This document shows, in pieces, positions 58,010-62,106 of a DNA stretch of 64,000 bases. The stretch spans positions 448,001 to 512,000 of the forward strand of contig CBDCTJ010000007.1 of the NCBI GenBank assembly GCA_965222115.1. The letters run 5' to 3'. Each line of letters opens with the position of its first letter. Within the stretch, counting starts at the first letter, position 1. The stretch is from Planctomycetota bacterium (lineage in GTDB: Bacteria; Planctomycetota; PLA2; JAEUHO01). A model generated the notes under the pieces. That model was not told the DNA's origin, ran no database searches, and saw only the letters and a list, made by a program, of their open reading frames with translations. Position numbers and translations under genes: made by a program.

Positions 58010-58043
58010 GCCCTAGCAGCACCCCTTGGAGGCCGACTCTATA

Positions 58044-58307
58044 GTGACTCGTTCAATTAACTTATCGCTTACAGACGAACTACGTGCGTTCCTGGATAAG
58101 AACTCAGGCGACGGAACGCTCTACTCAACGCCAAGCGAGTTCGTCCGTGACTTGATTCGTAGACAGAAGGATCGCATGGACGCCGCAGCGCTCCGAACAG
58201 CGGTGCTCGAAGGTTACGCTGCTGTTCGAGATGGTCGCACGCACGAGTACACAGGCGACCTTCGATCCTTGCTTGAGGAGCATCGTGCCGGTCGCGACGC
58301 ATCATGA
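58044..58307 (+). CDS. RHH antitoxin (ParD/CC2985-like)
   Basis: SINLSLTDELRAF...YSTPSEFVRDLIR...VLEG; GGAGG RBS; ATGA overlap with the toxin. Confidence 0.85.
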   Translation: MTRSINLSLTDELRAFLDKNSGDGTLYSTPSEFVRDLIRRQKDRMDAAALRTAVLEGYAAVRDGRTHEYTGDLRSLLEEHRAGRDAS

Positions 58308-58669
58308 CCAAACTAGTTCTTTCCGAGCGGGCGCTAGCTGATATTGACGCGATTGAACGTTACTCCGTCGAGCGTTGGGGAGAACGAGTTGCAAGCCAGT
58401 ACTTAGCAGATTTGGATGCAGCATTGGCTCGCCTAGCAAGCGACATCTCGCTATTCAGGGAGCGGTACGACTACACGGGTCGTCTTCGTTTCTACAACGT
58501 GCGCGAGCACGTGCTCGTCGGCGATATCATCGAAGGAACTGTGTTCATTCTGACGGTGTGGCACGGAAGCATGGATTTTATCGAACGATTACCGAGTATC
58601 GAGCCAGACCTCGTACGAGAGGCAGAGACACTGACATGCCAGATCGAAGTTCAAACAGATCGTGAATAA
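58304..58669 (+). CDS. RelE/ParE family toxin
   Basis: LSERALADIDAIERYSVERWGERVASQYL...EHVL...ILTVWHGSMD. Confidence 0.85.
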   Translation: MTKLVLSERALADIDAIERYSVERWGERVASQYLADLDAALARLASDISLFRERYDYTGRLRFYNVREHVLVGDIIEGTVFILTVWHGSMDFIERLPSIEPDLVREAETLTCQIEVQTDRE

Positions 58670-59055
58670 TTATACCCGTTCTGGCACCGCGCCTACCTCC
58701 GGTTCTGTGTGCGTCGCGTGATGCGGGCCAAGGTTTTGCGTCGACTTGCACAGGTGCAAATGGCGAGGGTGCAACTATGTAGTTAACGTTGGGTACATGT
58801 TCTACACACGCCATGTTGCGCGCGTTGCGACACTCAACACAAGCACTTCGTTTGGTGCGTGAAATGTGTGGATTTTGCCCTTCTATGAAAAGGCCTGGCA
58901 TGTCAAGTGCGAAGCCGCGTCGGCGAGCGCATTTACCGCGTTGTGCATGTGTAGTTCGGCCCCTTGAGTGCGCAACTTACCCTTACCGCCCTTGCCTTTT
59001 TGGCAGCGGATCGGGGCGAATCAGATTGCCAGTCATCGTCTCTGGCGCCAGAAAA

Positions 59056-59220
59056 CACGTCCCATTCAGGCTTCTATGCGCACTCGTGTTGGATCGAAGT
59101 TGATGCGACCCGGTGCAAGGTGGGGTCCGAGAACGAGTCTGGGTGCTGCATACTCAGTAGCGACGTCGCTATACGTCGGTCAGGGCACCGCAGTCACCCG
59201 GACTCGAATTGGGGTACGTG
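59056..59220 (-). ncRNA. Predicted bridge RNA / seekRNA
   Basis: Two stem-loops with internal loops whose strands match the target flanks and the circle junction; closed by CACGT/ACGTG. Ends approximate. Confidence 0.75.
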
Positions 59221-59265
59221 GAAACTGACCTTATCTAATGCTTGCCTAAAGCTGTTGCGCGAGGT

Positions 59266-60315
59266 TCAGGCGGCCACTGGGCATCGAACCGGTATGTACT
59301 CTTCGCCTGTTCGCCACAGCGCAAGCATGAGCACGGAGAGCTTGCGTGCCACGGCGATGACTGCCTTGCGTTTCGCAACTGCGCCTCCACGCGCAATGAT
59401 CCGCTCACCGTGGGACTTTAGATCGCATGGCGGGCCCAGTCGCCCGAGGATGTGATGCGCGCACTGAACGAGCAACGACCGAACCATACGGTCCCCAGCC
59501 TTCGTTATGCGTAGCTGCTTGTCCATTTGGCCCGATTGATCACGCCGTGGAACCATCCCGAGAAACGCCCCGACATCTCGGCGGTCTTCAAACCGCGCCC
59601 AATCTTGAACGGTCAACATGAATGCGAGTGCCGTGAGATTGCCCACGCCTGGAATCTGAGTGAGCAACTGTGTATCTGGATATCGCTCCTTCGCCAACTC
59701 ATCGATCTTTGCGTCGTAGATCTTTACCAACTCAGTGATTCGCTCGATTGCACTGAGAATGGGATTGAGCACATCGCAGAGCTCCTCCGGAATCTCGGCC
59801 CGCGTCTTCGATCCGATGCATTTTGATGCCTGCTTACGCAACCGCCCGCCCATGCTCTTAATGACACCTCGTAGCGAGTTCACCAACTTGGTTCGTGACG
59901 ACACAAGCGCGGCTCGTGCACGAATCAGCGCAAGGTCTCGTTGTGCGGACTCCGGTCGATGCCGAATTGGGGCAAGTAGTTGGGGATCGAAGCGACCGAT
60001 TTCAGCCAACTTCTTGGCATCCGTTCGATCGGACTTGCGAGTGTTCCTGTAAATAAAGCTTAGCTCTCGCGGATTCGCGACTAGCGACTGAGCACATCGA
60101 CCTTCGACGACCCGACTCGCCCAAGGCGAATGCGTTCCCGCCTCCATCACAACTCGAGCGGTTCGGTGCTTCGAGAGAAACTCGTGAAAAGACTCGCGCG
60201 TTGTCGCGATCTCGCCTTCTTCCTTTTGAACCCCCGTGTCTTGATCCAATACGCAATACCAAGAGAACCGGTCGCCTAGGTCGATGCCAATCGTTTCGGT
60301 GATACGCTTATTCAT
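59266..60315 (-). CDS. IS110 family DEDD recombinase/transposase
   Basis: IGIDLG, VMEAG, KSDRTDA (DEDD RuvC-like), IPGVG, DQSG catalytic Ser, ITKAGD, AVARKL. ATG 60315 follows GGAGGAG. Confidence 0.95.
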   Translation of the reverse strand: MNKRITETIGIDLGDRFSWYCVLDQDTGVQKEEGEIATTRESFHEFLSKHRTARVVMEAGTHSPWASRVVEGRCAQSLVANPRELSFIYRNTRKSDRTDAKKLAEIGRFDPQLLAPIRHRPESAQRDLALIRARAALVSSRTKLVNSLRGVIKSMGGRLRKQASKCIGSKTRAEIPEELCDVLNPILSAIERITELVKIYDAKIDELAKERYPDTQLLTQIPGVGNLTALAFMLTVQDWARFEDRRDVGAFLGMVPRRDQSGQMDKQLRITKAGDRMVRSLLVQCAHHILGRLGPPCDLKSHGERIIARGGAVAKRKAVIAVARKLSVLMLALWRTGEEYIPVRCPVAA

Positions 60316-60435
60316 GCTGGTAGCTCCTCCTGGGCCGTAGAGCCCGTTTTCTGTTTGCAGCACGGTTTACCGTGACTGCGCGACAGAGGAGCTACCGGCC
60401 TTTTCATCCCATCTCGGTATCTCACTTCGTATCGC

Positions 60436-62106
60436 CTACTTGATCTGCACGGGCACGTTCGTGCGCTGCCCTGTTACGACTATTATTTCCTTCACCTCGA
60501 TGGCATCGGCGTCTCCGACCCCCACGTACAATGTGTACCGGCCGGGACGCAGCGAGTCGATTAAGATATCCTCGCCGTCGGCAATTTGCTCCAGGCTTAC
60601 GTACCAAGTCTTGCCATCCGCCTCTGCCGCTTCCTCGTACCCGATCCTAACTTGTTCATCGACAATACGCTTTCCTCCACGCGAAAGCTGCATGGCGATG
60701 GCGCCAGCACGCGCTAACCGCACCACGAGACTCGGAGCGTCGCCCTCGCTAAGCATGCCGACCGTATCCTCGGTTGGAAGATACCCTGGCATTGATGTCG
60801 TTACCGTGCAGACACCCGCGGGTACGTAGAATCGGGTCGAGCGCCTTTGGCCCTCAACGCTGCAGTTTCCAAATGCGCGCCAGTCACCAGCTACATCCCG
60901 CACGTGCCAGGAGACGTTCGAATCCGGAGGAATCACCTCTCCGGGCGCAGTGACCAGCGAGACTGAAACAGCGATTGATGGAGGTAGTCTAAGATCTAGC
61001 TCCTCGTAGTCCCTCTCAAGCCTGATATCCTTGCTGATGACGTACTTCTCGAGACTAATTGAAAGGCGATAATTGCCCTTGGGGACCTCTGTCTTCACCT
61101 GGGCGGCGTCTTCGAAATCTCGCCCCAGAAGCAGTTTCCTCGACGTTGCCTCAGTTTGGGCGCTCGCGCCCCTGAATTTTACTTCGTCCACATGCGGCAA
61201 GGTGCCGTTTTGCTCAGATACTCGCAGCTTCAACCGGCAAACTTCCTGGAGTGTGCTGTCAACCTGAAGGAAAACGCTACTTGTAACTCCCCGGGCAATG
61301 GTCACTTCTTGACGAACAACTGGCGGAGGTCCATCGAGCCGGTCCTCCCAGTGGTGCCCGTATCGAATCACGATTTCTGCCTCTCCCACCGGAATCCCCT
61401 CCAGAGTGGCAGCGCCGTCTTGACCAATAGTCACATGGTCAATACCTGTTGCTGCCACAAGGTACGCTGACAACCCCAATTTGTCACTCCAACCGTTTAC
61501 GGAAATGCGCAGTGTACCTCCAGGACCAAGTGCAACTGTGCGGGCGTCTCGCGGGCCCGAAGCGCGTCCAGATGTAAGCACAGCCTTACCTGCATACCCG
61601 GGAGCGGCAATCCAGAGGCGCCGTACTTCCGACCGCAAGCCGACCGTACCTCGCGCATCAGAAGCGCCTATGAGACTTGTGTCTGCGCTCACGGGGCGAA
61701 GAATGCGCTCCAAGTAATCCATCTCCGACGAATCCCGGGACTTGACGACATAGACTTGAGCACCCTCAATTGGATGACCATCACGCGTGACGATTCGGAG
61801 CCAATCATTCGGTTGAGGTCCCTTGATACTTTCGAGACCAGCATCTTTAGCGGTATGCCCTCCAGACGACTCCCTGACGGAGGACCCACTGTTAGACGTT
61901 GGATTCGCGTTCCGTGTGACATGAGGCGTCTCGCGGTCCCCATATGGACGTAGTCCCGGTAGATCAGGATTCATAGAACGCGCGTGCTCGCCTAGCACTG
62001 CGACTGGAACCTCTTCACGGGGGGAGATCAGCATCAAGAACATACCGACCATAATGCAAGCCAGTACACCCACGGCGACCTTCTTGCCTCTACTCGGTTT
62101 TGACAT
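60436..62106 (-). CDS. Membrane-anchored carboxypeptidase-regulatory-like domain protein
   Basis: N-terminal TM; DGHPIEGAQV, SDARG, APGY, LRPGRYTL modules; starts 6 bp after the RHS stop. Confidence 0.7.
   Translation of the reverse strand: MSKPSRGKKVAVGVLACIMVGMFLMLISPREEVPVAVLGEHARSMNPDLPGLRPYGDRETPHVTRNANPTSNSGSSVRESSGGHTAKDAGLESIKGPQPNDWLRIVTRDGHPIEGAQVYVVKSRDSSEMDYLERILRPVSADTSLIGASDARGTVGLRSEVRRLWIAAPGYAGKAVLTSGRASGPRDARTVALGPGGTLRISVNGWSDKLGLSAYLVAATGIDHVTIGQDGAATLEGIPVGEAEIVIRYGHHWEDRLDGPPPVVRQEVTIARGVTSSVFLQVDSTLQEVCRLKLRVSEQNGTLPHVDEVKFRGASAQTEATSRKLLLGRDFEDAAQVKTEVPKGNYRLSISLEKYVISKDIRLERDYEELDLRLPPSIAVSVSLVTAPGEVIPPDSNVSWHVRDVAGDWRAFGNCSVEGQRRSTRFYVPAGVCTVTTSMPGYLPTEDTVGMLSEGDAPSLVVRLARAGAIAMQLSRGGKRIVDEQVRIGYEEAAEADGKTWYVSLEQIADGEDILIDSLRPGRYTLYVGVGDADAIEVKEIIVVTGQRTNVPVQIK

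Follow-up and report, generated by a model that had tools for sequence, protein, structure and literature searches.

Insertion sequences of the IS1111 group, within the IS110 family, belong to a class of RNA-guided elements described since 2024, and the systems closest to the one reported here are the IS1111 elements ISEc11, ISPa11 and ISKpn4, as well as IS621 and ISPpu9. ISEc11, ISPa11 and ISKpn4 (PMC11187229) encode a DEDD transposase of 330–350 amino acids with a GL-P----S(t)G-type motif, and have subterminal inverted repeats, a left extension of 7 nucleotides (nt) and a long 3′ non-coding region. In their guide RNA, the seekRNA, the match to the top strand of the target lies 5′ of the match to the bottom strand, the two overlapping at the insertion point, and the elements use repeated sequences as targets, with natural redirection between relatives. 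In IS621, one bridge RNA contains two internal loops, one for the target and one for the joined element ends (the donor), each loop offering one strand to each DNA strand around a 2-nt core (PMC11208160, PMC11208158); its left end encodes the RNA, 5′ of the gene, and the guides come in the opposite order (PMC11187229). ISPpu9 forms modular circles with AG dinucleotides as crossover points, sub-modules consisting of its RNA gene and one end are found apart from the transposase gene, and its Ssr9 RNA is not needed for transposition (PMC12288879). Predicted bridge RNAs have been reported for 93% of the IS1111 elements in ISfinder (PMC11208160).

Here we analyse an element in a stretch of 64,000 nt (the window) from a Planctomycetota bacterium (assembly GCA_965222115.1, contig CBDCTJ010000007.1, positions 448,001 to 512,000). 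Positions 58880–60414 of the window, minus strand, comprise an intact insertion sequence that belongs to the IS1111 group within the IS110 family. The element has the anatomy of the group, carries a conserved two-loop RNA whose four loop strands covary with target and element ends, and is present in several copies inserted in a specific repeat. We consider it very likely that its DEDD recombinase is steered by this RNA, encoded 3′ of the gene, and inserts a circle at the AG core of a repeat of ~32 base pairs (bp). An earlier, sequence-only reading of the window had proposed an intact IS1111-type element with a DEDD recombinase guided by a 3′-encoded RNA, and the family features, compensatory base changes and covariation between loops and flanks described below support that proposal.

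The features listed above for ISEc11, ISPa11 and ISKpn4 all recur in this element, as do the single RNA with target and donor loops around a 2-nt core known from IS621, and the AG crossover points and separate RNA-plus-end modules known from ISPpu9. It differs from ISEc11, ISPa11 and ISKpn4 in its target repeat and in the first core base, which the top-strand guide leaves unpaired in the subclade of the window element. Its protein is at most 34% identical to relatives in the plasmid collection and 66% identical to the nearest public protein outside the window's genome. Unlike IS621, the core is AG in transposase orientation, and only the C-terminal protein domain is detectably similar. Unlike those of ISPpu9, the modules in this genome are tandem 323-bp tails beside a full copy and 194-bp solo tails, known from sequence, with no circles seen. 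As the RNA-guided class is already described, we regard the element as a well-preserved further example, not a new mechanism or kind. Among the matches listed in a literature search for IS1111 in Planctomycet*, none was about such an element by title or abstract, and from sequence comparison it is plausible that this member is uncharacterised.

The element is organised as follows.

58880–60414, minus strand: whole IS1111-type element, from core AG to core AG, 1535 bp; two other full copies match this exact span
60413–60414, minus strand: left core dinucleotide AG (CT on the plus strand); AG is found at both junctions in all three copies and in most homologues
60408–60412, minus strand: left terminal extension ATGGG, 5 nt (7 nt with the core), from end comparison
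60397–60407, minus strand: left subterminal inverted repeat ATGAAAAGGCC, an exact 11-bp inverted repeat with 58885–58895
59266–60315, minus strand: transposase gene, 349 amino acids (stop included), with a GGAGGAG ribosome-binding site upstream; Pfam and NCBIfam matches
58885–58895, minus strand: right subterminal inverted repeat GGCCTTTTCAT, the exact 11-bp partner of 60397–60407
58880–58884, minus strand: right extension AGA, 3 nt (58882–58884), and right core AG (58880–58881), from end comparison

The genome contains three full copies (the window copy, C3:484747–486280 and C7:2360467–2362001), which are 98.4–98.5% identical and in all of which the transposase frame is open. Identity between the copies breaks off at 60414/60415 and at 58880, and the flanks outside diverge, so the ends assigned by the sequence-only reading are exact. 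In transposase orientation, each full copy reads flank-AG-ATGGG-ATGAAAAGGCC ... GGCCTTTTCAT-AGA-AG-flank. The left extension of 7 nt follows the IS1111 rule (PMC11187229), and the exact 11-bp repeat falls within the 7–17 bp spanned by subterminal inverted repeats of the group (PMC11208160). The non-coding region measures 99 nt 5′ of the gene (60316–60414) and 384 nt 3′ of it, the long 3′ region being a further feature of the group. There is no target-site duplication: unoccupied paralogous sites have a single NG, compared with AG on both sides of occupied sites. Of the 34 homologous loci, which come from other genomes of this phylum, 22 proved to share this arrangement, each with ATGAGAAGGCC-type repeats at its two ends; the remaining 12 are cut at contig ends, are fragments, or have ends missed by the search pattern. 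The core itself varies among homologues, being AC in L017, L018 and L025 and GG in L043, with the RNA changed to match. In L032 and L035, the left extension is longer by one base (AATGGG).

The transposase combines an N-terminal DEDD/RuvC-like domain (PF01548, E = 2.2e-18) with a C-terminal domain (PF02371, E = 4.1e-22), and it scores 219.8 bits against NCBIfam NF033542, 'IS110 family RNA-guided transposase', for which the cutoff is 140. An alignment of 14 sequences (the window protein and 13 public relatives, 49–65% identical) shows no variation at D12, E58, D96, D99, G253, P256, S261 or G262; from this conservation, D12, E58, D96 and D99 are candidate catalytic DEDD residues. The last four positions, G253 to G262, make up the G--P----S/T-G motif that has been described for IS1111/IS110 transposases (PMC11187229). 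Similarity to the solved IS621 and ISCro4 proteins covers the C-terminal domain only (E = 2e-5 and 7e-7, respectively), and our searches returned no closer solved structure for this branch. One relative, 50% identical, carries the source label Planctomycetota.

Downstream of the gene, the 3′ non-coding region encodes the RNA, in which the following parts are distinguished.

59059–59212, minus strand: seekRNA or bridge RNA region, covariance-model match of 119.8 bits, one of five matches in the genome
59134–59206, minus strand: hairpin 1, target-binding loop, stems P1–P4; fold z = −4.47, compensatory changes in helices 1–3
59065–59133, minus strand: hairpin 2, donor-binding loop, stems P5–P7; fold and covariation in helices 5 and 6
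59179–59187, minus strand: corrected top-strand target guide UGCCCUGAC (5′ strand, loop 1), its register fixed by 15/15 homologues
59153–59159, minus strand: bottom-strand target guide UACUGAG, core AG included (3′ strand, loop 1), reading in the sense of the left flank TACCG|AG apart from a single U:G wobble
59118–59125, minus strand: donor guide, 5′ strand CCCCACCU, with 6/8 pairs to core and left end (AGATGGGA)
59071–59078, minus strand: donor guide, 3′ strand CAUAGAAG, equal to right end and core, 8/8 in the window

Both hairpins had been placed here from the sequence, and the strings are found at those minus-strand positions: hairpin 1 at 59206–59134 with loop strands GGUGCCCU (59189–59182) and CUACUGAG (59160–59153), and hairpin 2 at 59133–59065 with CCCCACCU (59125–59118) and CAUAGAAG (59078–59071). 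The four stems described for hairpin 1 are its minimum-free-energy fold (−35.6 kcal/mol), and none of 200 shuffled sequences was as stable. A covariance model with seven stems (R1), built from the 3′ non-coding regions of homologues with proteins 42–61% identical, matched 32 of the 34 sources searched, nearly all at loci of related transposases, including 12 loci outside model building; the two sources missed were L030, a 5′ gene fragment, and L038. In the window's genome there are exactly five matches, corresponding to the three full elements and two tandem tails, and the region 59041–59233 is without any difference among the three full copies. Paired cells made up 85.3% of the model alignment, compared with 73.7% in shuffles and 29–40% in slid controls, figures in which a model-fitted alignment favours the structure. 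Both sides had changed in 22 of 34 base pairs, and none of 500 shuffles reached the observed values. In a first MAFFT alignment, RNAalifold paired GUCCGG with the start of hairpin 2, replacing the described basal stem (helix 1); we rejected this pairing because the described stem, once model-aligned, shows compensatory changes (both sides changed in 7/8 pairs, 76% paired).

Across the family, the scaffold of the RNA is conserved and the four loop strands are variable. We scored the two strands of loop 1 against the flanks of their own and of other elements in a set of 15 non-redundant elements with usable flanks, leaving out near-duplicates (L018, L025, L026, L040) and loci whose flanks were short or duplicated (L033, L035, and L041 or L015). 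In loop 1, the 5′ strand paired with the second core base and right flank of its own element at a mean of 7.6/9 positions, compared with 4.4 for non-cognate combinations, and the 3′ strand of loop 1 matched its own left flank and core at 6.5/8, compared with 4.5; in both cases, none of 20000 permutations reached the cognate value. The loop strands thus covary with the flanks of their own elements, among homologues with proteins 42–61% identical. Runs of 9–10 contiguous pairs between guide and flank occur in L014, L016, L017, L020, L034 and L039. The top-strand guide of L032 finds its match in the right flank 5–6 nt off the junction, another out-of-register case besides the one described below for the window.

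In the donor loop, the 3′ strand matches right end and core at 7/8 or more positions in 20 of the 21 elements with complete ends. An A/G position in this strand tracks the AGA/GGA form of the right extension in 21/21, and its last base tracks the AC core. At the left end, L012 (ATGAG) and L033 (ATGGA) show a change of the facing RNA base that keeps the pair, and L021, with the same left end as L012, is without a compensating RNA change. For the window itself, the matches proposed earlier hold: CAUAGAAG agrees with right end and core at 8/8, CCCCACCU with the left end at 6/8, and UACUGAG with the left flank apart from the U:G wobble. The top-strand match lies 5′ of the bottom-strand match, as has been reported for IS1111 seekRNAs, IS110 types having the opposite order (PMC11187229), and guide order together with the 3′ location of the RNA also agrees with PMC11208160.

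It could be argued that the hairpins are merely a structured 3′ untranslated region or a terminator, and that the loops match the flanks by chance. The 226-nt region taken whole is indeed not unusually stable (z = −0.89), and an Rfam search with E up to 10 gave three chance-level matches only and no bridge RNA family. This explanation is already contradicted by the covariation of guides with flanks and of the RNA with core variants; in addition, the RNA accompanies the transposase in 32 of the 34 sources, and there is no terminator-like site 3′ of the RNA on the minus strand. We give it almost no credence.

Several observations weigh against an RNA-guided element of the kind proposed, and we collect them here. 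The anchors of the guide windows were chosen after the alignment had been seen, and the homologues are kin; the permutation figures consequently overstate independence. Hairpin 2, which folds as the sequence-only reading described, is of ordinary stability (z = +0.46; 123 of 200 shuffles equalled or surpassed it), and its basal helix (helix 4) is weak in the family, at 70.3% paired; its support comes from covariation instead, in helices 5 and 6, where compensatory changes occur and pairing reaches 100% and 86.7%, respectively. The 5′ strand of the donor loop agrees at just 6/8 positions and can covary little, as the left end is nearly invariant. The top-strand guide fits none of the three occupied sites perfectly, scoring 7/9 at the C7b flank, 6/9 at the C3 flank and, out of register, 5/9 in the window, and it leaves the first core base unpaired in the window's subclade. 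No RNA sequencing run was listed as containing the window stretch, the integrated element yielded no full sigma-70-type promoter, and no circle junction was found in Logan contigs of four runs (two samples from one study, possibly the source of the assembly), a weak negative since contigs drop rare forms.

The natural target of the element is a dispersed genomic repeat of ~32 bp, (G)ATAC[C/G]G-NG-T[A/C][A/C/G]GGGCAAAATCCACAC-TTTTC, with 26 copies at up to 3 mismatches and 50 at up to 5. The flanks of both the window copy and the C3 copy belong to this repeat, which in the window is interrupted as follows.

60415–60423, minus strand: left half of the interrupted target repeat (GAGATACCG), matching the left part of the repeat family
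58856–58879, minus strand: right half of the interrupted target repeat (GGCAAAATCCACACATTTC...), lacking 4 nt after the core in comparison with unoccupied copies

In the form (G)ATACGG-TG-TACGGGCAAAATCCACAC-TTTTC, the repeat occurs at ~50 sites genome-wide, including window positions 58856–58879 and 60415–60440. It is often preceded by additional GATACGG units, and it forms arrays of the same orientation with 1–3 kb spacing, clustered for example at C7:641870–669589, C7:2273528–2284328 and C3:482356–488587. We considered an integron attC site, a transposon terminal repeat and a repetitive extragenic palindromic (REP) sequence as identities for the repeat, and rejected them on the basis of 26 copies, which show no conserved hairpin or consistent inverted pairing. 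Two truncated left ends of the element, at C1:600989–601147 and 617015–617095 (L008 and L009; 87% and 83% identity), abut GATACCG|AG, the left half-site of the window.

Comparison with unoccupied copies of the repeat changes the reading of the top-strand guide. The unoccupied site at C7:69899, in transposase orientation, reads ATACCG-AG-TCAG-GGCG; it shares its left half with the window and continues with 4 extra nt. Since unoccupied copies carry these 4 nt, the right junction of the window copy has lost TCAG or TACG; with AG on both sides of the lost stretch, the loss is equally readable as AGTC. Members of the repeat family without the 4 nt were not found in the genome, and of five genome sites that join both halves without them, none continues into the conserved right part of the repeat. 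The loss may have occurred at insertion or afterwards. As a result, the right flank of the window copy pairs with the guide only out of register. The sequence-only reading had taken UGCCCU as the top-strand guide and had rebuilt an empty site TTTGCC-CT-CGGTAT by joining the flanks. The 6-nt complementarity of UGCCCU to AG|GGCA is real, and the rebuilt site is not among the unoccupied sites, from which it differs by the missing 4 nt. In all 15 homologues, the partner of the second core base (G) in the guide occupies alignment column 38–40, directly before the apical stem, whereas the UGCCCU register puts the core at column 36, four columns earlier. The corrected guide UGCCCUGAC (59187–59179) is complementary to the right half-site G|TCAGGGCA, which is present in the dispersed repeat, and at column 40 the window guide is complementary to four unoccupied copies at 9/9 (C1:482161), 8/9 (C7:69899), 8/9 and 7/9 positions. 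The 6-nt match noted earlier is the distal part of this guide pairing out of register. Guides read from a single copy can therefore mislead, a loss of 4 nt at one junction having produced a convincing out-of-register match.

The alternative would be that the UGCCCU register, which abuts the core, is the functional one, that TTTGCC-CT-CGGTAT is the true empty site, and that the window copy occupies a preferred target that has not changed. It has in its favour the contiguous 6-nt complementarity, core included, between 59182–59187 and the window's right junction, and the fact that this junction is unchanged in the Logan contigs, though these possibly come from the assembly's own sample. The same register departs from that of 15/15 homologues, the other two copies and the four tested empty paralogous sites match at column 40 and not at 36, the repeat family has no member lacking the 4 nt, and the closest paralogous site (C7:69899) continues after the identical left half with TCAG-GGC; we therefore judge this alternative very unlikely. 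The empty allele expected by the sequence-only reading, TGCC-CT-CGGTA, is formally at odds with the paralogous empty sites, which leaves its general claim of an RNA-guided element undamaged. An empty allele of the window locus itself was not found in the Logan contigs of the four runs. A different matter, compatible with an RNA-guided IS1111 element using the corrected guide, is that the window copy is stranded, the element type being functional and this copy unable to excise. The window RNA scores best against its own right flank at the wrong column (36), with 5/9, near the non-cognate mean of 4.4, and in ISEc11 the replacement of target bases on either side prevented circle formation (PMC11187229). 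By analogy, excision of the window copy may be impaired. Set against this, the copy is intact in other respects and has the same RNA region as the other copies; private bases at 60351, 60350 and 60312 distinguish it from both of them. Overall, we put a stranded window copy at somewhat below an even chance.

With the corrected guide, the RNA-guided IS1111 element would operate as follows. The DEDD/Ser recombinase would be co-expressed with an RNA of ~150 nt from the 3′ non-coding region, folding as two hairpins with one internal loop each. In hairpin 1, the 5′ strand UGCCCUGAC would pair with the target top strand at the second core base and right flank, G|TCAGGGCA, and the 3′ strand UACUG-AG with the bottom strand of left flank and core (TACCG|AG). 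In hairpin 2, the 3′ strand AUAGA-AG would pair with the bottom strand of right end and core, and the 5′ strand CCCA.C(U) with the top strand of core and left end, so that with both strands paired the RNA would hold the joined ends of the excised circle. The element would be excised as a circle joined through one AG, the RNA would bridge circle junction and target in a synapsis, strands would be exchanged at the core, and recombination at AG would insert the circle into the dispersed ~32-bp repeat without target duplication. Transcription of the RNA with the transposase message, transposase binding, circle excision, synapsis, strand exchange and catalysis are presumed here by analogy with the published family.

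Parts of the element also occur as separate modules. At C7:2359821–2360790 there are three tandem units of seekRNA and right end, made up of the 3′ end of the full copy and two added 323-bp tails that follow it (C7:2359821–2360468, loci L003–L005). The junction between tandem units reads CATAGA-AG-TCCGGGTG, the internal AG at 59204–59206 serving as a pseudo left end, and this internal start site, AG|TCCGGGTG, resembles the right half of the target. The chromosomal flank of the C7 tail is also TCCGGGTAAC, followed by GGGTAAC-like repeats. In addition, two solo right-end tails of 194 bp, with 93% identity, are located at C1:602195–602388 and 603929–604122 (L006 and L007). They start exactly after the internal CATAGAAG (59071–59078), the donor-guide sequence identical to right end and core. 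Both have GATACCA-AG to their left and AG-CCGCGTTTTTTC to their right, and they diverge beyond. Both kinds of tail junction occur as loose ends in the Logan contigs. That the DNA encoding the guide RNA itself serves as a recombination site is conceivable, though we hold it to be improbable. If such sub-circles are made and reinserted by the transposase, the module encoding the guide RNA would amplify itself as a non-autonomous passenger, raising guide dosage and spreading without the transposase gene, a sharper case of ISPpu9-type modularity. A related arrangement is seen in another genome (G120, L033:2708–2990), where the last ~45 bp, comprising a −35-like TTGAC, an inverted repeat and the right end, are duplicated in tandem; the L033 flank repeats internal sequence, with a right-end duplication as in the window's genome.

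Together with its relatives, the element provides a natural data set of ~20 related IS1111-branch elements that differ in their targets and among which the cores AC and GG also occur. It could also serve as a further orthologue for programmable recombination, a concept that is already established.

Near the right end, one further feature may relate to expression.

58901–58906, minus strand: TTGACA, a possible −35 of a circle-junction promoter, 25 nt from the right end; function inferred

In 20 of 23 elements, a TTGAC-like hexamer precedes the right end by 23–25 nt (25 nt in 16, 24 nt in 3, and 23 nt in the truncated L035); in the three AC-core elements the distance is 17 nt. The −10 completed in the circle at a spacing of 17 nt would read GAAGAT, agreeing with the consensus at 3/6 positions, so that TTGACA is at most faintly suggestive of the −35 of a promoter completed in the circle junction. 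Just before this hexamer lies a small GC hairpin, GCCG-ACG-CGGC (58910–58930, minus strand), kept as GCCGC-loop-GCGGC in the closest homologues (L012, L013 and L014), which may be a terminator or a protein-binding site. The element is adjoined by a two-gene pair at 58026–58669 on the plus strand, the second product of which matches the ParE toxin (PF05016, E = 2e-13); its upstream partner, 93 amino acids long and without a Pfam match, is probably the antitoxin.

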